Program-made: the position numbers and the translations under genes
Source: a bacterium
GTDB taxonomy: Bacteria; Patescibacteriota; Dojkabacteria; GCA-016699595
Assembly: GCA_016699595.1 (NCBI GenBank)
Contig: CP064982.1
Location: forward strand, 379,829 to 443,828
DNA: 64,000 bases
Direction of reading: 5' to 3'
The notes under the pieces: model-generated
Database searches by the model: none
Seen by the model: only the letters and a program-made list of their open reading frames with translations
Told to the model about the DNA's origin: nothing
In this document: one piece after another, positions 11,040-28,650 of the stretch
Numbering within the stretch: position 1 is the first letter of the stretch
Layout: each line of letters starts with the position of its first letter

Positions 11040-11058
11040 TTTCTTGACAAATTCTTAT

Positions 11059-11142
11059 GGAGGGGTCGCATAGTTGGTCTAGTGCACAGTCCTGGAAAGA
11101 CTGCGTTCCAAAAGAACCGGAAGTTCGAATCTTCTCCCCTCC
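11059..11142 (+). tRNA. tRNA-Ser (anticodon GGA)
   Basis: Acceptor GGAGGGG/CCCCTCC, anticodon stem CAGTC/GACTG with loop CTGGAAA, long variable arm (GTTC..GAAC), T-loop TTCGAAT. Confidence 0.85.
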
Positions 11143-11268
11143 GAATTGGAAATATCTAGATAAAATAAAAAATTATCAAAAGGACTTTTCACTTTTAGTT
11201 TTCGAATATCTGTAATATGTGTCTATATTTGAGTTGTTTTGATATTTTTGTGGCTCAATAGTTCTTAC

Positions 11269-11348
11269 ACTATACCAAATAATAATAGTGTATAATATTT
11301 GTATAGATGATATAGGGAATTTAGTCGAACTTCGTATGTCCGAGAGTT
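11269..11348. repeat. Copy A (3' part only) of the ~170-bp AT-rich promoter-like repeat (family F1)
   Basis: CCAAATAATAATAGTGTATAATATTTGTATAGATGATATAGGGAATTTAGTCGAACTTCGTATGTCCGAGAGTT closely matches the copies at 19276, 20890, 21500 and 22213. Confidence 0.8.
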
Positions 11349-11396
11349 ATAATCAATTGACAGGCTAGCTAGAAAGATCTTCAAAGAAAGAGTAAT

Positions 11397-11714: not shown

Positions 11715-11885
11715 ACGCTCGCCTGTCAACTCTGAACTTTTTATTTGCTTCGCTACAGAACGTTGCACTAAAATTCAGCCCTTCAGGGAATATAACATGT
11801 GATAAAAGACTACAAAACCTTGCAGGATTCTCCATCCAAATTGGGCTATGCCCAACTTCTTTTATCCCTAAACGTTATGTGTAAT
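11715..11885. repeat. GC-richer intergenic element related to the F2/F3/F4 families (degenerate)
   Basis: Shares CGCTTCGCT, ACGTTGCACT and a terminal AACGTTATG (GTTATGT core at 11874-11880) with the other elements. Confidence 0.4.
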
Positions 11886-12621: not shown

Positions 12622-12677
12622 CTTGCTCACTATCGGTCGCACCAGATTGTACTCTCTCACTCCCACTGGTCGTTCGG

Positions 12678-12796
12678 GTCTGACAACACAATATATGCGC
12701 TTCGAGCCTTGCAGGCTCACACCCATATTGCGCTACAACTTATAATTTGATAAAATATAGATGTAACACAACATCGCATATACTGGAACGTTAGAT
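12678..12796. repeat. attC-like imperfect palindrome (family F2, long form)
   Basis: GTCTGAC - 7 nt - TATATGCG ... central perfect hairpin GAGCCT-tgc-AGGCTC ... CGCATATA - 7 nt - GTTAGAT (12790-12796). The 8-bp L boxes are perfectly complementary. The next ORF starts 24 bp after the GTT core. Confidence 0.55.
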
Positions 12797-13255: not shown

Positions 13256-13339
13256 GCCTAACAGCGGATATGAGGTTCAGCTCTTACAGAGCCTCAACCC
13301 AAACTGCTACGCAACTTTTCATATCCGCAAACGTTAGCC
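13256..13339. repeat. attC-like site (family F3): GCCTAAC-a-GCGGATATGA ... TCATATCCGC-aaac-GTTAGCC
   Basis: 84 bp. Inverse core GCCTAAC matches RYYYAAC. The 10-bp L boxes are perfectly complementary. CTAAC/GTTAG pair, with asymmetric 1- and 4-nt bulges. The right core GTTAGCC approximates GTTRRRY. Confidence 0.6.
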
Positions 13340-13839: not shown

Positions 13840-13960
13840 TATCGCTCCGTTCGGGTCTGACAACACAATATATGCGCTTCGAGCCTTGCAGTTTCTCACC
13901 CATATTCCGCCGAAGTTTGATAAAATAAACTAAGGTATCGGCGTAACATCGCATATACTA
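13840..13960. repeat. F2-family GC-rich element (copy b; right core degenerate)
   Basis: CCGTTCGGGTCTGACAACACAATATATGCGCTTCGAGCCTTGCAG..CTCACCCATATT is near-identical to 12670-12730. Right arm CGCATATA is present but no GTTAGAT follows. Confidence 0.6.
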
Positions 13961-14088
13961 AAAACAGTATATTATATTTAAAAAATATATAATATATATA
14001 CTCATATTTGCTATATAGTCAAACATTCGCAAAGATGAGAGTTATCGGAAATTTCAAGCAATATTTTTTATACAATTAGCAAAGTTTA

Positions 14089-14505
14089 GTGAAAAATATG
14101 ACAAAGAAAGTTGTTATTGCCGGGAGCGCATCACTTCAAGAAAAAGTTTTGTTCTGGAAAAAGTTTTGGGAAGATAAAGGGTGTCTTGTGACAAATTGTC
14201 CTTTGCCAATAAAAAAGGAGAACTTTTTAGAAGAATATCCTAAGGTTCATACGGATTTTTTCAAAAATATCACAGAGGCGGATATTCTTTTTGTTATGAA
14301 TGAGGATAAAAATGGTATTACTGGATATCTCGGTGTGGAATCTTTTGCAGAAATGTGTTTTGGGGTTGCTCAAAACCTCATTCACAACAAAAATCTTGAG
14401 GTGATGCTTTTGCAAGAACCAAGTGAGCGTGTGCAATCATACGAAGAAGTAGTTTTGTGGTTAAAATTAGGCTGGATAAAATTGCACGACAAAAACATTG
14501 CTTGA
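14089..14505 (+). CDS. Hypothetical Rossmann-like protein (possibly nucleoside 2-deoxyribosyltransferase-like)
   Basis: VVIAGSAS ... ADILFVMNEDKNGITGYLGVESFAEMCFGVAQ pattern. Weak resemblance only. Confidence 0.25.
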   Translation: MKNMTKKVVIAGSASLQEKVLFWKKFWEDKGCLVTNCPLPIKKENFLEEYPKVHTDFFKNITEADILFVMNEDKNGITGYLGVESFAEMCFGVAQNLIHNKNLEVMLLQEPSERVQSYEEVVLWLKLGWIKLHDKNIA

Positions 14506-14751
14506 AAAATCAGATAACAAAACATATACGGTTCGCTCACAGATATTTTGCGTCCTTATTTTGCAAAAATATAAACACAACTGATTTATTATGTTGCTCA
14601 AAAATTAGAGAAATTCAGTAAGACTATCAAAACATTCCTAAATGCTAGGATTGTAGTACAAGTTCTTTTTCATTGTTTCCACACTCCAACTGAAAGATAT
14701 AATACTACATTCCATTCTTCATCGAGAAACATCATAAAGTCTCAGATTCTT

Positions 14752-15738
14752 TTACTTCTCCAATCTCCCTACTTCATTTGCACTTATCATACTGTCTCTA
14801 ATCTGACTTGCGATATCATTCATTCCGGACGGTGAATGTGGAAGCATGATTGTATTTGTTTTGCTACTCATGGAAATCTCTTTCAATGTGTCAAAGTATT
14901 GTGTCATTAGAACCAAATTCATCACATCTTTCGCAGTTGAACCGTGAACTGAACTTTGAAATTCCTCAACAGAATCTTTCAATCCTTGAATTATAGCTCT
15001 TCTTTGATCAGCAATACCTTTACCTTGCAATGCTTTCGATTGTGCTTCAGCTTCAGCTCTTTTGACTAGCAATATTCTTTCTGCTTCACCTTTCTCTGCA
15101 GCCGCAATTCGAAGTCTTTGTGCTGAATTTATCTCGTTCATTGATTCTTTGACCTTTGCATCTGGTTCAATATCGGTAACTAGTGCATTCACTATTCCAA
15201 AACCAAATTGTGTCATAGTTTCTTCCAACTCTTTTTTTACTGCAAGTGCTATTTCATCTTTGTTATCAAAAAGCTGGTCTAGTGTCATTTTGGGGACTTT
15301 CGCTCTAATGACATCATAAACATAAGAATTTATCTGTCTTGCAGGATCATTCAATTTATAAAATGCATCTGCAGCTTTTTGAGGTATGACAAAAAACTGA
15401 ACTGAAGTTGTCAAATGAACAAATACATTGTCCAGTGTCTTCGTTTCAGCCTTTACATTTAATTCTTGAACTCGAAAAGATAACTTTCCTGCCTTTTTTT
15501 CAACAAGAGGAATTTTCCAATTTAGACCAGCTGTTGCAATTCTGACAAATTTGCCAAATCTTTCAATCACTGCAGCAGTTTGCTGTTCAACCGTAAAAAG
15601 AATCGATGGGATAAAAATAAAAACTAATATCAATATGATGATGGGGATAATTATAAGTTCCATAGTAGTTAAGTTAGGATTTGTAAGTATTACATTATTT
15701 AAATTATTAAGAAACATTATACTGCTTTTGTACTGCAT
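14752..15738 (-). CDS. SPFH/band-7 (stomatin/flotillin-like) membrane protein
   Basis: N-terminal TM segment followed by an SPFH domain and a coiled-coil Ala/Glu-rich tail (QRLRIAAAEKGEAERILLVKRAEAEAQSKALQGK). The true start is probably an internal Met. Confidence 0.7.
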   Translation of the reverse strand: MQYKSSIMFLNNLNNVILTNPNLTTMELIIIPIIILILVFIFIPSILFTVEQQTAAVIERFGKFVRIATAGLNWKIPLVEKKAGKLSFRVQELNVKAETKTLDNVFVHLTTSVQFFVIPQKAADAFYKLNDPARQINSYVYDVIRAKVPKMTLDQLFDNKDEIALAVKKELEETMTQFGFGIVNALVTDIEPDAKVKESMNEINSAQRLRIAAAEKGEAERILLVKRAEAEAQSKALQGKGIADQRRAIIQGLKDSVEEFQSSVHGSTAKDVMNLVLMTQYFDTLKEISMSSKTNTIMLPHSPSGMNDIASQIRDSMISANEVGRLEK

Positions 15739-15881
15739 TTTTCAAGTAAAGTTACTAGTTGGAATTTCAAATGCGTTATCACAATTTATCTATAAAATCA
15801 TTTATAATTGTATAATTATCTGATATCATACTCAGGCTATAATGCTGAACTAATAATAAGTAACAGAACTTAAATAAATTT

Positions 15882-17357
15882 ATGTCAAATATCGGACAAT
15901 CACTACAACAAGTAAGAGAATTTAGAGTTCAAAAATTAAACAAGCTGAAGGAATTGGGATTTGACCCATATCCTGCTCGAGTTCAAAAAGACAAAAACAA
16001 TGCAGAACTTATAAATAACTTTGACGAATTGCAAGGGAAAGATTTTTTCATAACCGGAAGAATTGTCTCTATCCGAAGTTATGGTAAATTGTTGTTCCTT
16101 GATGTGCAAGATGAATCAGGCAAAATTCAATGCATTGGTATGCCACAAAATGTGATTGGACTAGAAACAAAATATTTAGAATTTGGACAGTTAGATCTTA
16201 TTGACAATGGAGATTTTGTAGAAGTCTTTGGGACTCTAGGCAAATCAAAAACTGGTGAAATCTCTATATTAGTCAAAAGCATCCGAATTATCACAAAGTC
16301 CCTTAGACCAATTCCAGATGAACTCAATGATGTAGAAGAAAGACAAAGAAAAAGATATCTGGATATAAATGTGAATGGATCAAAAGACAAACTTGACTTA
16401 CAAGCAAGATTTGAGAGAAGATCCAAGTTCTGGCAAGCAAACAGGGACTTCTTAAACTCCAAAGGTTTCATTGAGATGAATATGCCTGTTTTGGAACTCA
16501 CTACAGGAGGAGCTGATGCAAATCCATTTGTAACTCATATGGATGCTATAGACCAAGACTTTTACTTGCGTATTTCTCACGAATTACCACTCAAAAGGCT
16601 AATTGGAGCTGGCTACGAGAAAGTTTATGACATTGGTCCAAGATTCAGAAATGAAGGTTTTTCTGATGAACATTTGCCTGAGCATATTGCTATGGAATGG
16701 TACTGGGCATATGCTGATTTTCAAAAGGGAATGGAATTTATGGAAGAAATGTTTAAGTTTATCTCATATGAAGTTTGGGGCACGACAAAATTTGAAAACA
16801 TGAAAGGCTTTGAAGAAATAGATCTTGAAAAAAAATGGGAAGTTATAACTTATGAGCAAATTTTGCAAGATAGATTTGGAATTGATATTTGGAATGTTGA
16901 TTTGGACAAAGTGAATGTAGAACTTGCCAAGTTTGATGATAAAGCAGAAAATATTAATCGAGGTATTGACAAGCTTTGGAAGAAAATTCGAGCAACTATC
17001 GGAGGTCCAGTTTGGATGATTTATGAGCCTGCATTTCTTTCCCCACTTGCAAAGCCAAGTGATACTGACAAAAGAATAACAGAACGATTTCATCCCATAA
17101 TTGCTGGATCAGAACTTGGAAATGGATTTAGTGAATTGAATGACCCTCAACTTCAACTCCAGAATTTTTTGGAACAAGAAAAACTTAGAGAAGAAGGAGA
17201 TGCTGAGGCGCAAATGTTGGATGATGACTTTGTAGAAATGCTTGAGTACGGTATGCCTCCAACTTGTGGATGGGGACATGCAGAAAGAAATTTTTGGTTC
17301 TTTGAAAATGTTTCAGCAAGAGAAGGAGTGATTTTTCCACCTATGAGAAGAAAGTAA
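15882..17357 (+). CDS. lysS: Lysyl-tRNA synthetase (class II)
   Basis: OB anticodon-binding domain followed by the class II core (FRNEGFSDEHLPEHIAMEWYWAY, GGxxERxxM-like C-terminus). 491 aa. Confidence 0.9.
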   Translation: MSNIGQSLQQVREFRVQKLNKLKELGFDPYPARVQKDKNNAELINNFDELQGKDFFITGRIVSIRSYGKLLFLDVQDESGKIQCIGMPQNVIGLETKYLEFGQLDLIDNGDFVEVFGTLGKSKTGEISILVKSIRIITKSLRPIPDELNDVEERQRKRYLDINVNGSKDKLDLQARFERRSKFWQANRDFLNSKGFIEMNMPVLELTTGGADANPFVTHMDAIDQDFYLRISHELPLKRLIGAGYEKVYDIGPRFRNEGFSDEHLPEHIAMEWYWAYADFQKGMEFMEEMFKFISYEVWGTTKFENMKGFEEIDLEKKWEVITYEQILQDRFGIDIWNVDLDKVNVELAKFDDKAENINRGIDKLWKKIRATIGGPVWMIYEPAFLSPLAKPSDTDKRITERFHPIIAGSELGNGFSELNDPQLQLQNFLEQEKLREEGDAEAQMLDDDFVEMLEYGMPPTCGWGHAERNFWFFENVSAREGVIFPPMRRK

Positions 17358-18649
17358 TGTATTTTACCTCATTTTCTCAAAACACAAACTTCAAAAAATA
17401 CAAATTAGAAATATTAAATAAAGCTTGGTTTCAAGACATTGTTACAAACTTTGAAGATATCACAGCTTTGTCAAAAGAAGAAAGAGAGTTTTGCAAAACT
17501 CAATTTGACAATGAACTTCAAGAATTGAAAAATATCAAGTCAAATAGCCCAACAAAAACCGGCTCTGGAAGAATTATTTCAAAAAAGGCACAATCATTGG
17601 TCCAAACAGAGGAAAATTCCACATTGAAGTTTTCTCAGATTTTCAATGCCGAAGCTAGAGAAGAGTTCAAAAGTTCCAAATTAGAATTTGCAAAAATAAT
17701 AGATTTATCAGCTACTTTACATTTTGAACTAATTAAACTTCTATTTGACAAAGAATCAAATACTTGGAAATCTCTTTTCAAGCTTTATGATGGCAAGAAA
17801 ATTGAATCAGTTTTGATGAGATTTGAAGATGGTCGCAACTCAGTTTGCGTTAGTTCTCAAGTTGGTTGCCCTGTTGGTTGTATTTTTTGTGCTTCTGGTC
17901 AAATGGGATTTATGAGGAATCTAACCTCACAAGAGATTGTCGATCAAGTTTTATTTTGGGCTAGACTTATGAAGCTTATGCCCAAAAACTTGGAAAATGA
18001 TTTGCCTAACCAACAACCTACTTCCACTTCCAATCACTTTTTGAAGGAAAAAGATAATTTTGAAAAAGTTACAAACATAGTTTATATGGGAATGGGCGAA
18101 CCTATGTTGAATTATGAAAATGTAGTTGAAAGTTTGAAAATACTTACAAATCCAAATGAATTTGGTTTAGGAGACAGGCATATAACTTTGTCTAGTTCAG
18201 GTTATATACCACAACTTGAAAAGTATATGACCGAGGGAATGAAAACAAAGCTTGCAATTTCGCTTCACGCACCTAGTCAGGAACTTAGAGAAAAATTAAT
18301 GCCAGTTGCAAAAATTTATTCGCTTGATAAGTTGATGGAATTCATAAAGAAGTATGAGAAATATACCGGGAAAAGAATTAGTTATGAATATACCTTGATA
18401 GATCAGGTAAACGACACTCAAGAATGTGCAAGAAATTTGGCTAAGTTACTCAAAAATCGAGAGGCACATGTAAATTTGATACCTATGAATCCAATTGCTG
18501 AAGCAAAAGATTTGAGAAAATCAGATCTACGAAATGTTTATGCGTTTTATGAAACTTTGAAACATTTCAAAATTCCTACAACAATTAGAATCACCATGGG
18601 TGACAAAATACAAGCAGCTTGTGGTCAACTTGCAAACAAAAATGGTTAG
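17357..18649 (+). CDS. rlmN: 23S rRNA (adenine2503-C2)-methyltransferase RlmN (radical SAM)
   Basis: CVSSQVGCPVGCIFCASG radical-SAM Cys cluster, MGMGEPMLN motif. Start overlaps the lysS stop (TAATG). Confidence 0.85.
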   Translation: MYFTSFSQNTNFKKYKLEILNKAWFQDIVTNFEDITALSKEEREFCKTQFDNELQELKNIKSNSPTKTGSGRIISKKAQSLVQTEENSTLKFSQIFNAEAREEFKSSKLEFAKIIDLSATLHFELIKLLFDKESNTWKSLFKLYDGKKIESVLMRFEDGRNSVCVSSQVGCPVGCIFCASGQMGFMRNLTSQEIVDQVLFWARLMKLMPKNLENDLPNQQPTSTSNHFLKEKDNFEKVTNIVYMGMGEPMLNYENVVESLKILTNPNEFGLGDRHITLSSSGYIPQLEKYMTEGMKTKLAISLHAPSQELREKLMPVAKIYSLDKLMEFIKKYEKYTGKRISYEYTLIDQVNDTQECARNLAKLLKNREAHVNLIPMNPIAEAKDLRKSDLRNVYAFYETLKHFKIPTTIRITMGDKIQAACGQLANKNG

Positions 18650-18652
18650 TAT

Positions 18653-18737
18653 GGAGGGGTGACCGAGTGGTTGAAGGTACCGCTCTCGAAAAGCGGCATG
18701 GGGCAACTCATCGCGAGTTCGAATCTCGCCTCCTCCG
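18653..18737 (+). tRNA. tRNA-Ser (anticodon CGA)
   Basis: Acceptor GGAGGGG/CTCCTCC (one G.T), anticodon stem CCGCT/AGCGG with loop CTCGAAA, long variable arm, T-loop TTCGAAT. Confidence 0.85.
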
Positions 18738-18882
18738 TCGAGTTTTACTTTTTTCACAATTGGCTCTTGATATTATGGAAGATAACTGATTTATTGATTT
18801 GACATATTAAACTAAATACAGTACAATTAATGGTAAATTTGTAGTTTATTAATCTATAAAGCAAAAACATTCTTAAAGAAAT

Positions 18883-19218
18883 ATGGGGAAGAGACGTTAT
18901 CCAAAAGATCAGAAAAGTTTTGATAATGTATATTATGAGACATATGGTGATTATCGTGATAATGTCCTTTATCCAAAAGGGGCTTGGTCTTATCAAAAAA
19001 TCTTCCAGACAGCTTGTGTGGTCAAGAGTCAACAAGAACAATATAAAAAAGCTGGACAGCCTGTCAATCTAATGCTTAGAGAATGTTTGTTATTTCAAAT
19101 AATTCAAAAAGGTGGTATTAACGCAATAGACGCATGGTTAAAAAAGAATGATCCAGGACACTATCGACTTCGGGATATTGCAAACATGGATTGGAGTTGG
19201 TTGGATGAGTCAAGGTAA
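18883..19218 (+). CDS. Hypothetical protein
   Basis: ORF only. No motif. Confidence 0.35.
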   Translation: MGKRRYPKDQKSFDNVYYETYGDYRDNVLYPKGAWSYQKIFQTACVVKSQQEQYKKAGQPVNLMLRECLLFQIIQKGGINAIDAWLKKNDPGHYRLRDIANMDWSWLDESR

Positions 19219-19275
19219 TATAAGGTATAATAATATTACAGTTCTTCACGCAAATAATAAAATTAAGCGAACAGG

Positions 19276-19440
19276 GAAAACTTCTCATACAAGCAAAGGT
19301 TTAACTTCCAGTACTTTCAAAAACTTCGTAATTAGTTCTTTATGCATAACTTATATCACTGTTATACTACCCAATAATAGTGTATAATATTAGTATAGAT
19401 AATATACGCAATCTAGTCGGACTTCGTATATCCGAGAGTT
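19276..19440. repeat. Full-length copy B of the ~170-bp AT-rich promoter-like repeat F1
   Basis: AAACTTCTCATA.AAGCAAAGGTTTAACTTCCAGTACTTTCAAAAACTTC ... CCCAATAATAGTGTATAATATT ... TAGTCG.ACTTCGTATATCCGAGAGTT. About 88 % identical to copy E. Contains a TATAAT box. The next ATG is 42 bp downstream. Confidence 0.85.
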
Positions 19441-19482
19441 AGATGAAATCAAAAACAATTATATTTTTAAAAGCAAAAAGTT

Positions 19483-20295
19483 ATGAAAATCGCATTAACA
19501 AATCTGTGTAAATTAGAAGATTTTGCAAAACACAAGACTTATCAAGATGCAATAGGTTTTTTACATGAAGAAAATATTGAGTATCTTGATTTTTGTTCTG
19601 GTGAAAGTGATTTGGATAATTTAGTGGCAAAGTTTAATAAGTCATTGGATTCTGAGGCGGATATAATATGGATTGTTTGTGGAGGATGGTCATGTATTAA
19701 AACGTTAGAAAAAATTGATTGGGGAAAGGTGGTTGCAAGTAATAAAAAGTTTTATGGATTATCAGATTTTACTCACTTTTCCTCTAAGGCAGTTTCCTTG
19801 GGAATTACTTGTTACTATGGGCAAGGACTTGTGTACATTAAACAGTTTTTCCCAACAAATAATAGCCGTGAATTTATCGTAAATTTCTTAAAAACAGGGG
19901 ATGCTGGTTCTAGTATGGCAAAATCATTGTCTTCAAATACGGAAGATTTAGATATAAATAAGGTAAAAATAACAGGTGGACATATGCTCATATTCGCATT
20001 TATGCAAAATCAGATCAATATAAACTTACAAGAAAGATATCTATTTTTGGAATATCATCATGGGGCTAATGGTATAGAGTTAAAAGAGCTTGAATATTAT
20101 CTAGATCAAGTACTTTATGTAATAAAAAACAATTTACCGAAAGGATTTATTTTAGGAAGAAGTTTACTAAAAAATTTTGATGGAACAGAAATAAAAATAG
20201 AAGAAATAAATGAGTTTCTTGTTTCTAAATTAGAAAAGCTTAACTTACCAATCTATTATGTTGATCATTTTAATAACATTATAACTTTTTGCTAA
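19483..20295 (+). CDS. Possible LD-carboxypeptidase (peptidase S66 family)
   Basis: GLSDFTHF resembles the S66 nucleophile motif (GxSDxT). Weak overall. Confidence 0.35.
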   Translation: MKIALTNLCKLEDFAKHKTYQDAIGFLHEENIEYLDFCSGESDLDNLVAKFNKSLDSEADIIWIVCGGWSCIKTLEKIDWGKVVASNKKFYGLSDFTHFSSKAVSLGITCYYGQGLVYIKQFFPTNNSREFIVNFLKTGDAGSSMAKSLSSNTEDLDINKVKITGGHMLIFAFMQNQININLQERYLFLEYHHGANGIELKELEYYLDQVLYVIKNNLPKGFILGRSLLKNFDGTEIKIEEINEFLVSKLEKLNLPIYYVDHFNNIITFC

Positions 20296-20358
20296 ATATG
20301 GAAAATGTTTTTGACTCTCGCTCCTAAGGTCGCTCGCCCTAACGGGTCATCTAACAGT

Positions 20359-20454
20359 TGATATCTGTTCGCTTCGCACATCCAGACCGATGAGTTAAAT
20401 TTTAATTGAATGGTCGGGACGTCAGATATCAGCGAACGTTATGCGAATAAGGCT
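20359..20454. repeat. attC-like site (family F3, copy b): ATCTAAC-ag-TTGATATCTG ... CAGATATCA-gcgaac-GTTATGC
   Basis: Same architecture as 13256-13339 with different L-box sequence. The 9-bp boxes are perfectly complementary. The preceding CTCGCTCCTAAGGTCGCTCGCCCT is shared with 13231-13255. Confidence 0.55.
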
Positions 20455-20506
20455 CGGGTCAAAGTGAATAGAAAGATTTATATTAGTCAAGAATCAAGAT
20501 AATAAG

Positions 20507-20746
20507 ATGAAGTGGAAGAAATTTTTTAAATTCACAAAAACTCAGATTATTTCTATAATAATTTTAATGATATTGTCATTTCCTTTTTGGTTTCATTTAT
20601 CCTGTATTAATATGTATATTGAACCCAAATTATTTTATAGTCCTTCCAGTTGTGGATTACAATTCTCAGAATTCGTTATTTTGCTTTTAGGTTCATATTT
20701 TATTTCAATTATTATAGATTTTATAATCAGAAAATTCAAAGAATAA
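20507..20746 (+). CDS. Small membrane protein (hypothetical)
   Basis: 79-aa ORF with two hydrophobic helices. Confidence 0.35.
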   Translation: MKWKKFFKFTKTQIISIIILMILSFPFWFHLSCINMYIEPKLFYSPSSCGLQFSEFVILLLGSYFISIIIDFIIRKFKE

Positions 20747-20773
20747 AAATGCTTTTCTTAATTCATTTCTTTG

Positions 20774-20870
20774 AAGTCGCGCTTACTCAAGGGGACGCTT
20801 CGCTTTCGTCGCTATCGCTCCTTACCCTCGTATAACAAGGAAATTGCTCGGCTCGCAACTTTCCCAAGTT
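20774..20870. repeat. GC-rich element family F4 (copy a)
   Basis: CTCAAGGGGACGCTTCGCTTTCGTCGCTATCGCTCC..CCCTCGTATAACAAGG is related to 23960-24040 (CTCAAGGGGCGACTACGCTTTTCACTC..CTCGTACAACAGG). It shares CGCTATCGCTCC with 13840-13850. Confidence 0.55.
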
Positions 20871-20889
20871 TTTCTTCCACTTCGTTTCA

Positions 20890-21050
20890 GAAAAACTTCT
20901 CATATAAGCAAAGGTTTAACTTCCAGTACTTTCAAAAACTTCACAACTAGTGCTTCATACATAGTTTAGATACATTTGTATACTAACTAATGATAGTGTA
21001 TACTATTTGCATGGGATATTTTACAAAATTTAATTGAACTTCGTACATCC
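20890..21050. repeat. Copy C of AT-rich repeat F1 (variant middle module)
   Basis: Shares the 5' AAACTTCTCATATAAGCAAAGGTTTAACTTCCAGTACTTTCAAAAACTTC and 3' GAACTTCGTACATCC modules. The middle ACAACTAGTGCTTCATACATAGTTTAGATACATTTGTATACTAACTAAT is shared only with copy D. Confidence 0.8.
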
Positions 21051-21101
21051 TTAAATGCTAGACGAAATTTTCTTAACTTAATTACTACTACAATCAAAGT
21101 T

Positions 21102-21422: not shown

Positions 21423-21498
21423 AAGTCGGAGTCAATATTGTCTAACATAGCATATCTGACTTTGCTAATGCTTCTTCATACTCAAGATGATGCCGAAA

Positions 21499-21632
21499 CG
21501 TGTGACTTCCAGTACTTTCAAAAACTTCACAACTAGTGCTTCATACATAATTTAGATACATTTGTATACTAACTAATAATAGTGTATAATGTTTGCATAG
21601 ATAATATACGAAATCTAGTCGAACTTAGTATC
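21499..21632. repeat. Copy D of AT-rich repeat F1 (5'-truncated)
   Basis: Begins at ACTTCCAGTACTTTCAAAAACTTCACAACTAGTGCTTCATACATAATTTAGATACATTTGTATACTAAC ... AGTGTATAATGTTTGCATAGATAATATACGAAATCTAGTCGAACTT. Confidence 0.8.
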
Positions 21633-21650
21633 AACTAGTGTTTTTTATTT

Positions 21651-22100
21651 ATGCACATTAACCTTACTTGGTTCCACTTAAAGAAAGTTTGGAAATTAAC
21701 AATTCCGTTACAAACACTCCTAATTATATTTCTGTTTGTATTCAGATCGGTACAAGCATTCAACATTCAAACAGGATTAGTAAGTGAGCTTCCAAAATTT
21801 GTAACAATTTTCGCACCAATTTATGAAGAAGTTATTTTTCGTGGTCTATGCCTTGCAATGTTTCTTAAATATTTCAATCGTAACAAAGCAATTATTCTGT
21901 CATCACTAATTTTCGGTTTGTGGCATTTGAAAAATTCCACCCATCTTAGTAACTTCGCGTTGTTATATCAAGTCAGTTATGCGATGTTTTTAATAGGTCC
22001 AATATTGGCTTATATCACCATAAAAACAAAAACTATTTGGCCTGGGATCATTCTTCACTATGTAAATAACATTATCTCCTCACTTATCCCTATTATCTAA
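21651..22100 (+). CDS. CPBP-family (CAAX/Abi) intramembrane metalloprotease
   Basis: EEVIFRG (EExxxR), FGLWH and HYVNN motifs in consecutive TM helices. Confidence 0.75.
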   Translation: MHINLTWFHLKKVWKLTIPLQTLLIIFLFVFRSVQAFNIQTGLVSELPKFVTIFAPIYEEVIFRGLCLAMFLKYFNRNKAIILSSLIFGLWHLKNSTHLSNFALLYQVSYAMFLIGPILAYITIKTKTIWPGIILHYVNNIISSLIPII

Positions 22101-22123: not shown

Positions 22124-22192
22124 CGTTTCGTTGCTGCTTCGCTTTCACTCCGTTCGGGTCGGACAATACAATAAATACTGGAACGTTATATG
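22124..22192. repeat. F2-family element, short form (hairpin core absent)
   Basis: CCGTTCGGGTCGGACAATACAATA|AATACTGGAACGTTATATG corresponds to the two ends of 12670-12796 with the central ~95 bp missing. Confidence 0.6.
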
Positions 22193-22212
22193 ATAAAATA
22201 ACAAGGAAATGA

Positions 22213-22379
22213 GCGAAACTTCTCATATAAGCAAAGGTTTAACTTTCAGTACTTTCAAAAACTTCGTAATTAATTCTTTATACATAACTTACATACACTG
22301 TTATACTACCCAATAATAGTGTATAATATTTGCATGGATAATATACGAAGTTTAGTCGAACTTCGCATATCTGATAGTT
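22213..22379. repeat. Full-length copy E of AT-rich repeat F1
   Basis: See copy B. The next ATG is 56 bp downstream. Confidence 0.85.
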
Positions 22380-22435
22380 GGCTGGAATAGTATGAACCTG
22401 CCCCTGAAATAATAGAAACATTTAAAAATAACACC

Positions 22436-23206
22436 ATGACATTAATAATACCAATTTTAGGACTAATAACACTTCTTTTTCTTTCGGGTTTGAGAATAGC
22501 ACAAGAATATCAACGAGCTATTGTATTCAGACTTGGACGCTTTAAATCAGTAAAAGGACCAGGACTTTATTGGATAATTCCATTTATTGAAAGACAGCAA
22601 AAAATTGACATAAGAACAAAGACTGTTGATTTAGAACAACAAGAAACCATTACCAAAGACAGTGTAACCATAAAAGTTAATGCTGTACTTTGGTTTAAAA
22701 TTATCAACCCTGAAAGCTCAATTATTAAAGTTGCTGATTACAATAAAGCTGTTTATCAATTTTCAGTTTCAGCATTAAGAAATATAATTGGGCAACATAG
22801 CTTGGACGAAGTTTTGAGGGACCGAGAACAGATAAATTCTAACTTACAAAAAATTGTTGACCAAACGACAGAACCCTGGGGCGTTAAAATTGAAATGGTA
22901 GAAATGAAAGATGTTGAAATTCCAGAAGGAATGCAAAGAGCAATGGCACGGGAAGCAGAAGCAATTAGAGAAAAAAGGGCAAGAATTGTAAAAGCAGAAG
23001 CAGAATTAGATGCTTCCATAAAATTGACACAAGGTGCTAAAGAAATGGAAGGAAGCCCAATTGCATTAGAGTTAAGAAGGATGCAAATGCTTTCTGAAAT
23101 TGGAATTGACAATAACACAACGACTATTGTTTTAGTGCCATCAGACTTTACAAATGCAGCCAAAAGTTTTACAGAATTAGTTACAAACAAGAAATCAAGT
23201 CAATAA
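22436..23206 (+). CDS. SPFH/band-7 family protein (stomatin/HflKC-like)
   Basis: N-terminal TM helix, then QEYQRAIVFRLGRFKSVKGPGLYWIIPFIE, typical of SPFH domain proteins, and a C-terminal coiled coil. Confidence 0.8.
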   Translation: MTLIIPILGLITLLFLSGLRIAQEYQRAIVFRLGRFKSVKGPGLYWIIPFIERQQKIDIRTKTVDLEQQETITKDSVTIKVNAVLWFKIINPESSIIKVADYNKAVYQFSVSALRNIIGQHSLDEVLRDREQINSNLQKIVDQTTEPWGVKIEMVEMKDVEIPEGMQRAMAREAEAIREKRARIVKAEAELDASIKLTQGAKEMEGSPIALELRRMQMLSEIGIDNNTTTIVLVPSDFTNAAKSFTELVTNKKSSQ

Positions 23207-23416
23207 AGCCACTACAGCCAACATCAGTTTGGCAAAAGCAGGGCAGACGGAAGTAATTGAGCATTTGTACTTCTATCAATATTTGCATTATATTTAGGCT
23301 GACGGCTTTCAAAGATCTGCCTTGGCCAAAATGTAACAGTATATGAAATTGAAAATTGGCTAGAATAAGATAAAAACAGTCAAATTTATAATGTTTTACC
23401 TACTCTCTTAAATATT

Positions 23417-23941
23417 ATGATCGAAATAGAAAAAACTTACTTAGCAAAAAAGCTTCCTAAAGATTTGACAAGTTGCAAATTCAATGAGATTATTGATCTG
23501 TATATTCCCAAATCTAGCGAGCAACCAAAATTGAGGCTTAGAAAACATGGTGATAAGTTTGATTTGACCAAAAAAGAGCATGTAAATAGTGGAGACGCTT
23601 CACATCAAGAAGAGCAAACAATAATTCTTACCGAAACTGAATTTAATATCTTAAATCAACAACTCGAAGGAAAGAGAGTTCACAAAATAAGATATTTTTA
23701 TGATTATAAAGATAGAACTGCTGAATTTGATATTTTTCAAGATAGTTTAGCAGGTCTTGTAGTTGTTGATTTTGAATTTGCAACTTTAGAAGAAAAAGAC
23801 AATTTTCAAATGCCTGATTTTTGTCTTGCAGATATAACTCAAGAGGTTTTTATTGCAGGTAGAATGATTTGCGGGAAATCATATGAAGATATTGAAAGTA
23901 ATCTAAGCAAGTTTCAATATAGTAAGTTATTTCTCGAATAA
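23417..23941 (+). CDS. CYTH-domain (triphosphate tunnel metalloenzyme) protein
   Basis: N-terminal ExExK motif (MIEIEKTYL), length and beta-barrel-like pattern typical of CYTH. Confidence 0.6.
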   Translation: MIEIEKTYLAKKLPKDLTSCKFNEIIDLYIPKSSEQPKLRLRKHGDKFDLTKKEHVNSGDASHQEEQTIILTETEFNILNQQLEGKRVHKIRYFYDYKDRTAEFDIFQDSLAGLVVVDFEFATLEEKDNFQMPDFCLADITQEVFIAGRMICGKSYEDIESNLSKFQYSKLFLE

Positions 23942-23959
23942 ATTTTTCTTTTGAATCAA

Positions 23960-24040
23960 TAGTGACGCTAGTTTTCAACTCAAGGGGCGACTACGCTTTT
24001 CACTCTACTTTGCTACATTCACTCTCGTACAACAGGCATT
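23960..24040. repeat. GC-rich element family F4 (copy b)
   Basis: See 20774-20870. Confidence 0.5.
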
Positions 24041-24215
24041 AAGAGAAAATTAGTTAGTATCATATACTTGATTTATGATAAAATTATTTATCCTATCAAT
24101 TCATCAGTAACTATCAGTACAATACTTTCAAAATTTGACTAAACATACTAACTAAATTCTGGCTAGATTCCAAAACCACTTGTTTGCAAAAAATGGAAAC
24201 AAATTATAAGTTTTT

Positions 24216-24983
24216 ATGACAAATAAAGGTGAAGCATGCACAACAAGCATAGTTCCTGAAATAAGAGAAATAGATCTTAAAGTAAAAGAAACAAGAGCTC
24301 CAAAAGATCTAAAAGAGCTATATTTGCTTGAAAAGACCATTCAGCGTGGCTGTAAGCATTTAGTAATAGAAGGACCTTCAGGTGAATACACTGAAATTAG
24401 ATTGTTAAATGTGCCAGTAAGTGGAGAGTATTTTTTTGGACGCGAAAGTGAAATTGCAGAAATATTTGAGGCTTTAGAGCAGTATCAATTTGTATTCTTA
24501 TGTGGGGATAAAAGAGTTGGCAAAAGTTCGATAATGAATGAATTGCATTTTAGGTCCGCTAACAACCCTCAAAGTGAATTTTATTTCGCACCAGTAATAG
24601 AGGGGATACACTTCCGAGATTTGAATATTGAGAACATGCTAAAAGAATTATCGAAGGAAGTAAATAATGCTTCTTCTTCTAGAGTATATGTATGTCAACT
24701 AGATGAAATAGTTAGCATCTTGGAGAAGTTTGGTGATAAATATGAGTTATCTCTATTGCAGTTCATTGAGATTGCAAAACAAAACCTTCCAAATGCCCAA
24801 TTTATACTATCAATGCCAGGAATACACATAAAAAGCTCTCCTAATCTCATGGCTATAGAAATAAAACCAATTGTAAATCCACAAATATTTAGCAATGTAA
24901 TAGATGAAACAAAGATAGGTTTGTTTACTTATATAGTGCACGATGATGGTATAGAAGAAACCGTATATTTACCGAATATATAA
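24216..24983 (+). CDS. Arch_ATPase-like P-loop ATPase (short/truncated)
   Basis: FFGRESEIAEIFEALEQYQFVFLCGDKRVGKSSIMNEL matches the FxxRExE...GxRRxGKT/S start of the archaeal/bacterial ATPase (PF01637-type) family. Only 255 aa. Confidence 0.5.
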   Translation: MTNKGEACTTSIVPEIREIDLKVKETRAPKDLKELYLLEKTIQRGCKHLVIEGPSGEYTEIRLLNVPVSGEYFFGRESEIAEIFEALEQYQFVFLCGDKRVGKSSIMNELHFRSANNPQSEFYFAPVIEGIHFRDLNIENMLKELSKEVNNASSSRVYVCQLDEIVSILEKFGDKYELSLLQFIEIAKQNLPNAQFILSMPGIHIKSSPNLMAIEIKPIVNPQIFSNVIDETKIGLFTYIVHDDGIEETVYLPNI

Positions 24984-25006
24984 AAATCTTTTGCTATAAT
25001 CTTCTA

Positions 25007-25522
25007 ATGAATTCTGCATTATCAAAAATTATTGAGGCTATTTGGTCTCCAGCGGCTTTATTACTTACGCTTAGAGTAATTACACTTATAGGATTATCTG
25101 AAATTTTGAATGTGAATTACACCATTTTTCATGATACAGAACAGTTCAAGATATTCTCAGCTGGATTTTCTTTTCCTACATTACCTGACCTTGTACAAGT
25201 AAATACCTTTTCTTTGTTGATTATTTTGATTGTATTCTCAGGAATAATTGGAATTAGATTCTTTCAAGCACTCAAATTCAATTCCGAACAAATTTCTCCT
25301 AAATCAGCAACAAAACTTATGAACTCAAAGTTTGTTGGACTTATCAAAACACCATTTGAGAACTTTTGGAAAATTTTCACTTGGATGATATTTTTTTATT
25401 TTATAGTTGTATATTCTTTGATAAATATAAGAATGAATTTGACTTCTACATATCTGATAGGAGCATTGATACTTTTGGGAACCATTATAACTATTTTCTT
25501 TTTCAAAGTAATAAATGAATAG
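25007..25522 (+). CDS. Hypothetical polytopic membrane protein
   Basis: Four predicted TM helices. No motif. Confidence 0.4.
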   Translation: MNSALSKIIEAIWSPAALLLTLRVITLIGLSEILNVNYTIFHDTEQFKIFSAGFSFPTLPDLVQVNTFSLLIILIVFSGIIGIRFFQALKFNSEQISPKSATKLMNSKFVGLIKTPFENFWKIFTWMIFFYFIVVYSLINIRMNLTSTYLIGALILLGTIITIFFFKVINE

Positions 25523-26342
25523 TCCTAGTCAATCAAATATTTTGAATGAAATTAAATACTTAAAGGTAAATATTGGATATTTCCCTAGGTTGAATAATTT
25601 TGTTAAACATGGATTTTCATGGGGAAATCAAGCAAATATGTCTTCAAAAAATAAGAATAGCAATGCAAAGAAGAATATCCAATATTTCTTTGATTCAATT
25701 GAACTTACAGAACTTGAAGATTCTTTAGTGTTATTGCCTGATGGACATAAGGATAATATTGTATTTGTCAATGAGGGAAATCTTGATTTATTTCCAAAAG
25801 GTAAAATCGGTATTCCAATTTCTTGTGACGCACTTTTTACAAATATACAAGCTTTACCAATTTCAATTCGTGTTGCTGATTGTACTACTGCTATTTTATA
25901 TGCAAAAACTTTTGATAATATAGAAATTACTGGAATTGTTCATACTGGTCGTAGAAGTGCTGAACTTTTACTTGCAAAGAAGTCAATTGATTGTTTGGTA
26001 AAGCAACAAAATGTAAATCTTGAAACTATAAAAATTGGAATTGTTCCAAGTATAAGTAAAGTTAATTATAAATCTCAAAATTTAGAAAATATTCAAGCTG
26101 AAGTTTGGGGCAGTTTTATTTCAAAAGAGGGGGATTACTTTGAAGTCGATATATTGAATTTTGTTATTAATCAATATTTAGATGCTGGTATAAGTCCAGA
26201 TAATATTGAAGTATATGAGGTTGATACTTACGAATCTGCAAAAAACAAACTTACATTTTCACATAGATACTATTCAGAAAATAAAGATATTGATAAAAAT
26301 TTAGTCGATGGAAGATTTATAGTAGCAACAAGTTTATATTAA
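25515..26342 (+). CDS. pgeF: Peptidoglycan editing factor PgeF (YfiH/DUF152 family)
   Basis: RVADCTTAILY and GIVHTGRRS motifs (Cys/His zinc site of YfiH). Confidence 0.65.
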   Translation: MNSPSQSNILNEIKYLKVNIGYFPRLNNFVKHGFSWGNQANMSSKNKNSNAKKNIQYFFDSIELTELEDSLVLLPDGHKDNIVFVNEGNLDLFPKGKIGIPISCDALFTNIQALPISIRVADCTTAILYAKTFDNIEITGIVHTGRRSAELLLAKKSIDCLVKQQNVNLETIKIGIVPSISKVNYKSQNLENIQAEVWGSFISKEGDYFEVDILNFVINQYLDAGISPDNIEVYEVDTYESAKNKLTFSHRYYSENKDIDKNLVDGRFIVATSLY

Positions 26343-26352
26343 TTTTAAATTT

Positions 26353-27780
26353 ATGAAAATTCACTTTATCGGTATTTGTGGAAAACTCAACGCAGGACTT
26401 GCAATAGAATTGAAGAATTTAGGTCATGAAGTTACAGGTTCTGACAAAGCATTTTATCCACCAATGTCAACTTTGCTTGAAAAGAATAATTTGCCAATCT
26501 TGGTTGGCTATAAAGAAGAACATTTAGATGAAAATAATTTGCCAGATTTAGTTACTTATGGTGCTGCAATCGGTGAAGATAATATTGAAGTTATAAAAGC
26601 AAAAAAGTTGAATATTGAGACTTGTTCTCCAACTGAATTACTTGAAAAGTTTGTGATCAAAAAAAATTCGATTGTTATAACCGGAAATTATGGAAAAACT
26701 ACTATAACGGGTTTATTGGTTAAAATATTTACTGACCTAGGTTTAAATCCAAGTTATATGATTGGTGGTGAAGTTCCAGAACTTGAGTCAGTGAAAATTA
26801 CAAGCTCAGATTGGAGTATCATTGAAGGTGATGAATATCCAGCTGAAAAAAATGGTAAATCAAAGTTTTTTTATTATCATCCGAAGTATCTGATTGTAAC
26901 TTCAGTGAAATGGGATCATACAGATATTTTCAAAACTGAAGAAGATTATAAAGTCAATTTTTTGAATTTGATGCAATCAGTTCCAGAAGGTGGAATTATT
27001 ATAGTCAACGCCGAGGATGAATTGTTTTTAAAAAATTCTAAATTTTCTAAGTTGCAAGAAGATCAAAGTATAAAATCAGAAATTATTTATTCAAATTTAA
27101 GTAATTACTTAGAAACACACACTAATAGTTTAATATTTCTAGATAAACCTATAAACCCTAAAATATTTGGTAAACATAATCTCGAAAATATAAGTTTAGC
27201 TTTAGAACTTTTGAAACAATGTTTTGATAATGATTTTTTGAAAGCTAATATCGACTCAATTATAAATTCAATAAATACTTACCCTGGACCTACTCGCAGA
27301 CTTCAAATAAAATTTGATAATGTAATCAAATCTCAAACTAGTTTAGACAATCATTTAGTTATAATTGATGATTTTGCACATAATCCTGAAAAATTCAAAG
27401 CAAGTATTTCAGCAGTTGCTGATAAATTCAAAGATCATAAAATTACTTGCATAATATTGCCAAATCTAGGAAATATTACAAAAGTTAGTTTAAGTCAATA
27501 TCAAGGAGTATTTGATAATGTAGTTATTGACGAAGTTATAATTCCTCGTTGGAGTACAAAAATTGCAGAAGATAGTGAAACTTATGCAAGTGAAAATTAT
27601 TTTGCACAGTTTCTCAATCTAAACAAGGTGAAAGTCGAAAAGGAAGATGACAAATTCATTGAATGTTTATTGAGTAAAATAGAAACTATAAGTGAAAATC
27701 ACGTAGTTTTATTTATGGGTTCGGAACCATTTCGAGGAATGATTGATATTTTGATTAAAAAGTTAAATAATGCTAATTAA
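26353..27780 (+). CDS. mpl: UDP-N-acetylmuramate:L-alanyl-gamma-D-glutamyl-meso-diaminopimelate ligase (Mpl), Mur ligase family
   Basis: N-terminus MKIHFIGICGKLNAGLAIELKNLGHEVTGSDKAFYPPMSTLLE follows the Mpl pattern. P-loop ITGNYGKTT. Confidence 0.8.
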   Translation: MKIHFIGICGKLNAGLAIELKNLGHEVTGSDKAFYPPMSTLLEKNNLPILVGYKEEHLDENNLPDLVTYGAAIGEDNIEVIKAKKLNIETCSPTELLEKFVIKKNSIVITGNYGKTTITGLLVKIFTDLGLNPSYMIGGEVPELESVKITSSDWSIIEGDEYPAEKNGKSKFFYYHPKYLIVTSVKWDHTDIFKTEEDYKVNFLNLMQSVPEGGIIIVNAEDELFLKNSKFSKLQEDQSIKSEIIYSNLSNYLETHTNSLIFLDKPINPKIFGKHNLENISLALELLKQCFDNDFLKANIDSIINSINTYPGPTRRLQIKFDNVIKSQTSLDNHLVIIDDFAHNPEKFKASISAVADKFKDHKITCIILPNLGNITKVSLSQYQGVFDNVVIDEVIIPRWSTKIAEDSETYASENYFAQFLNLNKVKVEKEDDKFIECLLSKIETISENHVVLFMGSEPFRGMIDILIKKLNNAN

Positions 27781-28582
27781 TAAATTTGCTAAAATAATTT
27801 TGAAAGCACTTGGAGTATTATTTGTACTAGTTTTGATCATTATATTTTACTCAGTTTATATTGAAAGGTTCAATACCCAAATTCAATATACAAAAATAAA
27901 CTTAGGTTTTGAGAAGAGGTTTATTTTGATTTCTGACTTACATTTAGGTAAATTCAAAGATGCAAGTTACTTGGCTTTGGTAGTAAAGAAAATAAATAGC
28001 GTAGAAAATGTTGATGCTGTGCTTATAGCTGGTGACTTTGTTTATAAACAAGACAATACTAAGCTGTCAGAATACTTCAAGCCGTTATCCGAGATAAGAT
28101 ATCCAACTTTTGCGGTTGTGGGAAATCATGATGTACTTGGAAGTGCAGCAGACATGAAAAATCAGATTGTCGAGGTTTTGGAAAGTAATAAAGTGAATGT
28201 TTTGACTAATGAAACTCTTGACTTTGAAAACATCCAAATTGTTGGACTTGGGGATAGATATGTAGGAAATAATCATTCTACTATTTTGAATACTTTGACT
28301 ATTGAAGATAAAGTTTTAGTTTTAGCTCATAACCCAGATTCAGTGAGAGATTATCTAAGTTTGGATAATGTTGATCTTACACTTGCAGGCCACACACATT
28401 GCGGACAAATCAGGTTACCAATTTTATATAAGATGATTTTGCACGTAGAAAATAATGATGGGATTCAGTTTGATAAAGGTTATTATAAATCTCACAAGTT
28501 ATTTATAACTTGTGGTTTAGGTGAATTTGGAATTCCTGCAAGACTTTTCAACCCTCCAACTATTGATGTACTTGATTTATGA
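27770..28582 (+). CDS. Membrane-anchored metallophosphoesterase
   Basis: N-terminal TM helix. Motifs ISDLHLG, IAGDFV, VVGNHD, GHTHCGQIRLP. Confidence 0.75.
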   Translation: MLINKFAKIILKALGVLFVLVLIIIFYSVYIERFNTQIQYTKINLGFEKRFILISDLHLGKFKDASYLALVVKKINSVENVDAVLIAGDFVYKQDNTKLSEYFKPLSEIRYPTFAVVGNHDVLGSAADMKNQIVEVLESNKVNVLTNETLDFENIQIVGLGDRYVGNNHSTILNTLTIEDKVLVLAHNPDSVRDYLSLDNVDLTLAGHTHCGQIRLPILYKMILHVENNDGIQFDKGYYKSHKLFITCGLGEFGIPARLFNPPTIDVLDL

Positions 28583-28650
28583 CGATACTCTAATTCAAAA
28601 CTTTATTCCTTCTACTATGATTAATTTTTTTATGAAAGTAGCACTTGTCT

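Follow-up and report, generated by a model that had tools for sequence, protein, structure and literature searches.

A non-coding repeat with a predicted outward promoter occupies cassette slots in two arrays of attC-like sites on a Dojkabacteria chromosome

In a 64,000-nucleotide stretch of a Dojkabacteria chromosome (GenBank assembly GCA_016699595.1, contig CP064982.1, positions 379,829 to 443,828; hereafter called the window), we analysed a short repeat present in five copies, which sit in two runs of small, co-directional genes without functional relation. These runs are arrays of gene cassettes, separated by GC-rich segments that resemble the attC recombination sites of integrons, and each of them begins directly downstream of a tRNA-Ser gene. 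The repeat proper, hereafter called P, measures ~139 bp from one GTT junction to the next and fills exactly one cassette slot. We consider that P is probably a cassette-derived promoter module, devoid of any open reading frame (ORF), that drives the cassettes located downstream of it. P is found behind two different attC-like sites and ahead of five different cassettes, and its behaviour is therefore cassette-like. The initial annotation of this DNA had proposed a mobile or recombining promoter element; the structural half of that proposal is supported by the bounds of P at cassette junctions and by its various neighbours, and promoter activity is a prediction from the sequence.

Searching the 64 kb with nhmmer and a profile of the copies yielded five matches, all on the + strand and at the positions initially assigned to them, and nothing else (c1 to c5, Table 1). 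The copies were also seen by reading the 18.8-23.0 kb and 10.1-14.8 kb regions, with a repeat finder and in a MAFFT alignment. The 19-mer CAGTACTTTCAAAAACTTC occurs four times, for 0.10 expected, and the four full copies share 95-100% identity over the first 21 nucleotides (nt) of P. A mosaic with two alternative middle modules had been described, and segment-wise identities bear this out. Over the 46-nt middle segment, identity is 91% for c2 with c5 (version A) and 98% for c3 with c4 (version B), against 67-72% between the two groups, while in the -10 region c4 clusters with c1, c2 and c5 (87-91%) and not with c3 (77%). The window is matched at 100% identity by independent Logan contigs of run SRR11674035 over 13862-19320, 19362-20935 and 22301-28799. 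These contigs end within the sections common to the copies, and the repeats are therefore no artefact of a single assembly. Two additional degenerate copies suspected by eye as relics of P, at ~13950-14045 and ~24100-24200 ahead of the genes at 14089 and 24216 (TAGTCAAACATTCGCAAAGATGAGAGTTATCGG; CAGTACAATACTTTCAAAA…CATACTAACTAA), did not reach significance (E values of 0.27 and 0.91 in a search of only 2.9 kb).

The GC-rich segments that separate the array genes share a terminal box, AAC(T/A)TC..ATAT – 6-8 nt – GTTAKRYG.AAT. The motif AACGTTAKRYG is found four times, for 0.09 expected, each time at a cassette end, and a profile of the box detects 13 sites in the window, all on the + strand and all within the two arrays. 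The box consensus GTTAKRY fits the attC R' core GTTRRRY, loosely so in its RRR part, and this core lies tens of nucleotides ahead of the next ORF, as in integron cassettes. The sites are laid out as …AAC – short spacer – L'' … L' – longer spacer – GTT…, with the R'' AAC and the complementary L'' and L' arms expected of an attC hairpin (~57-141 nt), and pairing between R'' and R' beyond AAC/GTT is only partial. A rule written as AAC-N1-5-X7…rc(X7)-N4-9-GTT, in which rc stands for reverse complement, holds for 11 of the 19 box-defined sites (58-108 nt), versus 1.6% of all GTTs. The X7 pairs vary from site to site (TATATGCG, CGGATATG, TGATATCT, GATAAAAG, CAGTATAT, GCGTATAT, CTGGCTAT and others), which amounts to covariation, and the homologous sites of the RIO-kinase cassettes in the window and in assembly GCA_018823045.1 (L058) differ by two compensatory changes. 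The covariation between L'' and L' is therefore the signature of a folded, attC-type recombination site. Generic local-alignment tests for hairpins in the whole elements were mostly non-significant, attC_d alone reaching a z score of 4.4, and the box-anchored structured rule was therefore needed; relaxed by one mismatch, it became uninformative (56 matches versus 42 expected). Rfam holds no attC family. The asymmetry of the spacers, the longer one being on the L'-R' side, is opposite to what we take to be the arrangement in canonical attC sites. Taking these features together, we call the sites attC-like and the arrays, at most, similar to clusters of attC sites lacking integron-integrases (CALIN), with no integrase gene nearby and no intI among the larger ORFs of the window that were scanned. 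One site, attC_l, resembles attC_c/attC_e (12660-12796) with the entire L''-L' loop deleted and is presumably a collapsed, dead site.

The array genes are mobile cassettes, each consisting of a short 5' untranslated region, a small ORF and a GC-rich attC-like site, with ends at the G/TT of R' (the slash marks the point of joining). The proteins of two cassettes have close homologues in other genomes of the candidate phyla radiation (CPR): 80-93% identity for the RIO kinase and 71-83% for the LD-carboxypeptidase-like protein, one homologue of the latter being encoded in an SR1 genome. Both are far closer to their homologues than is RlmN, a protein encoded in the window whose named relatives belong to Dojkabacteria/WS6 and other Patescibacteria and whose nearest homologues are 61-64% identical (best, 64%). 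This difference in identity implies exchange between distant CPR lineages. The RIO-kinase gene was again found in a run of co-directional small genes, with different neighbours each time, in L058, in a groundwater assembly (L061) and in a JGI metagenome (L062). The box profile of the window identifies the same box behind genes in the arrays of these three and of another CPR genome (L066), and no comparable match was found in 436 kb of other loci, where the best score outside same-genome contigs was 9.1 bits. Homology also ends where cassettes do. The LD-carboxypeptidase cassette is 83-93% identical to its L066 counterpart from 19439 (TTAGATGAAAT) to 20441 (…AACGTTA) and unrelated on either side, so that attC_i and the L066 site are alike up to GTTA and not beyond; the homology of the RIO cassette to L058 is likewise bounded at the boxes. 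The term 'cassette genes' used at the outset therefore stands: these are cassettes that recur in other CPR genomes next to other neighbours, with homology bounded at GTT boxes.

The pool of cassettes is common to CPR lineages, and no integrase gene is present within ~10 kb of the sites. The sites remain GC-rich in host genomes of 27-42% GC. They are located at 697-940, 1508-1601, 2494-2599, 3335-3513 and 5687-5857 in L058, at 1270-1356 and 3647-3735 in L061, and at 882-1030 in L066. The L058 array also harbours the same ~185-nt, GC-rich, ORF-less cassette (AAAATCACTCCCTGCGG…CGCGCCACATT) twice, at ~1596-1783 and ~4590-4780, directly after GTTATGC junctions; the genome of the window is therefore not alone in having repeated gene-less cassettes. 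In L062 (7862-8860), the 3' end of the upstream T2SSE ATPase gene recurs, along with an attC-like hairpin, as a 36-aa ORF followed by ~150 nt, and the cassette array seems to have been inserted at this hairpin. Exact look-ups of the CutA, SPFH and LD-carboxypeptidase proteins retrieved nothing, or contigs of the same sample only, and no strain variants.

With the sites so defined, the limits of P could be set. A profile built from the right arms of six GC-rich sites gave as its best non-training matches the right ends of c3 and c2, followed by the left ends of c5, c3 and c2, all on the + strand (11.7, 11.1 and 8.8 bits across the best matches). In the 436 kb of other loci, this right-arm profile scored no higher than 6.7 bits, except on L001, a same-genome contig overlapping the window. 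The unit of ~170 bp initially delineated is therefore flanked by two direct copies of an attC right arm, and although the repeat is genuine its boundaries have to be redrawn to the ~139 bp of P. The first 28 nt (AAACTTCTCATATAAGCAAAGGTTTAAC) of what had been called the 5' module are not part of the element, as they correspond to the right arm of the upstream attC-like site, found in another CPR genome as well. This left arm copy, AAACTTCTCATATAAGCAAAG-GTTTAAC, represents the right arm in an attC family also present in L058, where the arm is complete with a GC-rich leader and loop as in attC_j; the right arm of attC_j itself had been counted as the 5' module of c3. The left edge of P is sharply marked by c3 and c4, which are 44% identical upstream and 98-100% identical downstream of the point between GT(T/G)T(A/G)AC and TTCCAG, and it falls at the R' of two different attC-like sites, of the attC_M type or, for c4, attC_k.

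At its 3' end, P has an attC-type arm with the sequence L'' ATATACGAAGTT – TAGTCG – L' AACTTCGTATAT – CCGAGA – R' GTTAGAT. The end of the so-called 3' module (AACTTCGTATAT-CCGAGA-GTTAGAT) is thus to be seen as an attC-type right arm with a cassette junction, instead of primarily as a transcribed leader. The next cassette is joined to P at its G/TT. This right junction was verified for the LD-carboxypeptidase cassette, which starts at the junction G/TTAGATG of c2 (19438/19439). The box can be read as two ~11-nt arms around a spacer (7 nt in P, 9 nt in the GC-rich sites), the junction being at the edge between spacer and arm. The truncated copy c1 retains the last ~90 nt of P, from the -35 region to the junction, and heads array 1, 118 nt downstream of tRNA-Ser(GGA). 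Neither strand of P contains an ORF with a conserved start. P is therefore like a promoter cassette in being ORF-less and bounded by junctions on both sides, and it lacks a complete attC of its own. The palindrome arms AACTTCGTATA (22341-22370 and equivalents) are identical to the core of the loxP arm; they are in swapped order around a 6-nt spacer, and we regard the resemblance as probably a coincidence.

The prediction of an outward, sigma-70-type promoter in P is based on the following features. A TATAAT hexamer is found ~55 nt ahead of the right junction in four of the five copies, and the statement that the 3' module contains this box needs amending only for c3, which has TATACT. The -10 element is ~65-115 nt from the start codon, and the junction 11-59 nt from it; the distance of 40-60 bp initially given between the end of each copy and the ATG applies to four copies and not to c4, which ends ~11-19 nt from the ATG at 21651. 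Version B has the arrangement TTGTAT-17-TATAAT, and in version A a 12-bp inverted repeat spans the spacer between the -35 and -10 elements. All five copies are oriented toward the downstream gene, and the stretch around the -10 element is both the best conserved over the five copies and the sole part retained in c1. TATAAT is also found 18 nt ahead of tRNA-Ser(GGA). Finally, P is AT-rich like its host, whereas attC-like sites are GC-rich across hosts, and this host-like composition suggests that P evolved in the host lineage.

A number of observations weigh against P being a promoter module derived from a mobile cassette. The -35 element is weak (one to three of six positions), the TG abuts TATAAT and does not form a canonical extended -10, TATAAT is frequent by chance in DNA of 32% GC, and a generic scan for promoters and terminators was uninformative in this AT-rich DNA, with 75 promoter hits versus 67 expected. 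P has TAG or TGG in place of an R'' AAC ahead of L'' and therefore does not conform to the rule for complete attC sites; it thus cannot be counted as a canonical self-mobile cassette. Homology among c2, c3 and c5 continues leftward past the junction, with 97-100% identity over the attC_M arm, which fits duplication or gene conversion as well as site-specific movement. A scan of the window's 40 larger ORFs detected neither a Phage_integrase nor another recombinase domain, and there is no recombinase among the Pfam matches listed for L058, L061 and L062. Lastly, P is known from this genome only, and movement between genomes is unsupported. The exact 19-mer CAGTACTTTCAAAAACTTC gave only chance matches in GTDB representatives, JGI metagenomes and IMG/VR, in agreement with profile checks; a two-part pattern gave only chance matches in IMG/VR, and the P profile matched nothing in the related CPR arrays.

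On another reading, P has no expression function; it would be the decayed remnant of an ORF-less cassette, or a recombination scar, that unequal crossing-over has duplicated, with a TATAAT present by chance. The hexamer is often expected in AT-rich DNA and c3 has lost it, the palindrome and the boxes are decaying, and the repeated ORF-less, GC-rich cassette of the L058 array has no obvious promoter. The palindrome matches, counted by eye from the alignment, number 11 of 12 in c5, 10 of 12 in c2 and fewer in c1, c3 and c4. The right ends of c1, c2 and c5 do not conform to the AAC…L''/L'…GTT rule, and that of c3 has no GTT. Nevertheless, we hold a mere scar to be improbable, given that the -10 block is the best conserved segment in the five copies and the only remainder at the head of array 1, that P is AT-rich like the host and unlike the imported GC-rich sites, and that all five copies face the downstream gene at the short distances from the start codon reported above.

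The serious rival, which we nevertheless regard as unlikely, is an attI-like half-site combined with a promoter akin to the integron cassette promoter Pc. P would then be a landing pad, i.e., a mini integron platform without integrase gene that has been multiplied, and its double-stranded half-site would capture and express cassettes. The right end of P, with L' and R' and no R'', does not constitute a hairpin site, c1 and c2 are located at the array heads directly after the tRNA-Ser genes, a cassette junction directly follows every P, and class 1 integron cassettes bounded by attI-derived sites are functional (PMC12901181). However, intI is found neither beside P nor in the window, the left boundary at an attC R' box behind two attC-like sites reflects the behaviour of a cassette and not of a platform, P retains a decaying attC-type L''/L' palindrome, and three of the five copies are internal to array 2, whereas a single copy at the head would be expected. 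An att site derived from a tRNA was also considered and rejected, as P has no significant similarity to either tRNA-Ser.

Two further explanations stem from the initial annotation, one as its alternative and the other as the case that would refute it. The first, by which the genes would share a structured leader or small RNA with P as its 5' end, is very improbable. The 45 nt past the putative transcription start are conserved and the palindrome (ATATACGAAGTT-TAGTCG-AACTTCGTATAT) could form a 5' stem-loop; however, the conserved end is accounted for by its homology to attC right arms. In addition, minimum-free-energy folds disagree among the copies and score like those of shuffled sequences (z from -0.7 to +1.2), and the consensus fold, at -6.5 kcal/mol, is weak and lacks compensatory pairs on the + strand; on the - strand, three compensatory pairs, all isolated, are seen and the covariation term is positive. 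Rfam gives no match to P even at E<=5 and finds only three tRNAs in the window. The leader or small-RNA alternative is not supported. The second, a miniature inverted-repeat transposable element (MITE) or the terminal repeat of an insertion sequence (IS), has scarcely any likelihood. Such an element would be short, AT-rich and repeated like P, the ends of which are loosely self-complementary. However, the complementarity of the arms is non-significant (z from -1.0 to 2.2), an ungapped search for inverted repeats yields only internal palindromes, there are no target-site duplications and no transposase gene in the window, and the copies have a single orientation, are confined to the two arrays and have boundaries that coincide with cassette junctions. 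The case of an IS or MITE end thus did not materialize.

Regarding known systems, Xer/dif-type sites, as in integrative mobile elements exploiting Xer (IMEX) and in the pdif modules of Acinetobacter, have 11-nt arms and a 6-8-nt spacer. The box arms ACATCGCATAT / TTAGATGAAAT resemble what we take to be the dif arms, GGTGCGCATAA / TTATGTTAAAT, a resemblance that we consider as a lead only. Unlike Xer/dif sites, the box has a spacer of 7-9 nt and occurs as direct repeats with an inverted partner in a hairpin layout; neither an Xer gene nor a dif site was identified here, and no recombinase gene was found among the window ORFs scanned.

The closest described relatives of P are ORF-less promoter cassettes of Treponema-type oral integrons, the promoter activity of which has been measured (Tansirichaiya et al. 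2019, PMC6557892). Like them, P is short, has no ORF and lies between cassette junctions with a predicted outward promoter toward the next cassette. Those cassettes, however, have a complete attC and belong to an integron with intI, whereas P has no R'' and is present in five mosaic copies with no nearby integrase gene, its activity being predicted. P also resembles the combination of Pc with attI and the ΔattI-type cassettes (PMC12901181) in that its promoter is tens of nucleotides ahead of a non-hairpin half-site ending in GTTRRRY and two copies head arrays; it differs from Pc with attI by the lack of intI, the presence of several copies in one array, its cassette-like left boundary and its remnant of an attC-type palindrome. 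The arrays share with CALIN and sedentary chromosomal integrons (IntegronFinder; PMC4889954, PMC9024848) the co-directional, unrelated small genes, the imperfect palindromic sites of 58-108 nt with …AAC/GTT… cores, and the presence of the same cassettes in different genomes with different neighbours. They are unlike them in their CPR host, the GC-rich sites in AT-rich genomes, the asymmetric spacers (1-5 nt left, 4-9 nt right) and the weak R''/R' pairing beyond AAC/GTT. Group IIC-attC introns with outward promoters are another source of promoters deep in arrays, beside attC (PMC3001079); they are ~2 kb long and encode a reverse transcriptase, whereas P is a non-coding segment of 139 bp. P sets itself apart by its crippled own site, its five mosaic copies, the lack of a nearby integrase gene and its CPR host.

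If P is indeed a promoter module, each copy would restart transcription for the cassette or cassettes behind it, and cassettes with only a GC-rich site upstream would rely on read-through. P may have arisen as a cassette, the own site of which is now crippled. It would probably have spread and been homogenized by two routes, namely recombination at the flanking attC-like sites, together with the downstream gene, and homologous exchange between P copies; both routes together would yield the mosaic. As the variable middle segment spans the -35 element and the region upstream of it, versions A and B may differ in strength or regulation.

Table 1. Copies of P, attC-like sites and associated features in the window.
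Feature	Coordinates	Strand	Details
c1, 3' part of P only	11262..11357	+	profile match 11268-11349, E 2.2e-21; TATAAT 11291-11296; right box 11326-11356; junction G/TT 11346
c2, version A, with right box	19300..19449	+	P extent 19300-19438; profile match 19272-19446, E 1.5e-53; TATAAT 19383-19388; L''/L' palindrome 19402-19431; right box 19418-19449
c3, version B, with right box	20915..21068	+	P extent 20915-21057; profile match 20887-21060, E 3.5e-49; -10 TATACT 20999-21004; right box 21036-21068; R' GCTAGAC; most decayed copy
c4, version B	21501..21651	+	P extent 21501-21640; profile match 21490-21642, E 3e-46; TATAAT 21585-21590; right box degenerate; GTT 21640, 11 nt ahead of the CPBP-protease ATG
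c5, version A, with right box	22237..22388	+	P extent 22238-22377; profile match 22210-22385, E 5e-54; TATAAT 22322-22327; palindrome 22341-22370 (best preserved); right box 22357-22388; junction 22377
tRNA-Ser(GGA)	11058..11144	+	array 1 directly downstream
array 1	11.3-14.5 kb		small membrane protein, RIO kinase, MazG-like protein, two unknowns
attC_b	11790..11880	+	R'' ATATAAC; L'' GATAAAAG / L' CTTTTATC; R' GTTATGT; RIO-kinase cassette begins at GTT
attC_c, RIO-kinase cassette	12681..12796	+	L'' TATATGCG / L' CGCATATA; R' GTTAGAT; homologous to the L058 site behind RIO
attC_d	13256..13339	+	R'' GCCTAAC; L'' CGGATATG / L' CATATCCG; R' GTTAGCC
tRNA-Ser(CGA)	18652..18739	+	array 2 directly downstream
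array 2	18.9-24.2 kb		unknown, LD-carboxypeptidase-like, small membrane protein, CutA, CPBP protease, SPFH protein, unknown
attC_M-type right arm ahead of c2	19278..19305	+	L'-spacer-R' GTTTAAC
attC_i, LD-carboxypeptidase cassette	20349..20444	+	R'' ATCTAAC; L'' TGATATCT / L' AGATATCA; R' GTTATGC
attC_j (attC_M type), small membrane-protein cassette	20830..20920	+	R'' GTATAAC … L' CTTCTCATAT-AAGCAAAG-R' GTTTAAC
attC_k, CutA cassette, short	21440..21506	+	GTCTAAC-ATA-GCATATCT...AGATGATGC-CGAAAC-GTGTGAC; c4 begins at R'
attC_l, behind CPBP gene	22140..22191	+	R' GTTATAT
short attC_M-type site ahead of c5	~22194-22243		

The window, of ~32% GC, belongs to a bacterial chromosome, as it encodes RpoD, a class I release factor, Ddl, Alr, RecF, LysRS and RlmN. 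Synteny analyses based on RlmN homologues indicated that the locus is not conserved in the nearest relatives (61-64% identity). Two SPFH/Band 7 paralogues are encoded, one by the cassette behind c5 (22436-23206, +) and the other between the arrays in the opposite orientation (14752-15738, -). Outside the arrays, the uvrB ORF (35887-36798, -) covers only the C-terminal half of the protein, with the Helicase_C and UvrB domains, and the sufB/D ORF (34029-34817, -) ends within its core domain; both may be split, interrupted or frameshifted. A 43-nt direct repeat with 95% identity (56536-56578 and 56692-56734) is located within an ORF of 581 aa (55595-57340, -). Gene orientation and GC skew change sign at ~28580-28650, between convergent genes, which could represent the replication terminus or a mere change of coding strand; no convincing candidate for a dif site was identified at this switch (~28.6 kb).

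Mobile elements are usually considered scarce in CPR genomes, and the full-text literature searched yielded no report of integron-type arrays in CPR/Patescibacteria, which is not proof of their absence. A far-reaching scenario, to which we give little credence at this stage, is that CPR bacteria share an undescribed pool of attC-like cassettes, unlinked to an integron integrase and maybe served by a host Xer-type recombinase, and that a host-evolved, AT-rich module unites a promoter and a capture site in an integrase-less mini-platform that switches on silent cassettes. Should P prove to be an active promoter, it would illustrate how cargo remains expressed in arrays that lack a platform promoter, by means of a small promoter unit that takes up cassette slots and is duplicated inside the array. 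The context may outweigh the repeat itself in significance, with attC-like cassettes being exchanged between distant CPR lineages, and this exchange makes horizontal gene flow in these episymbionts directly testable.

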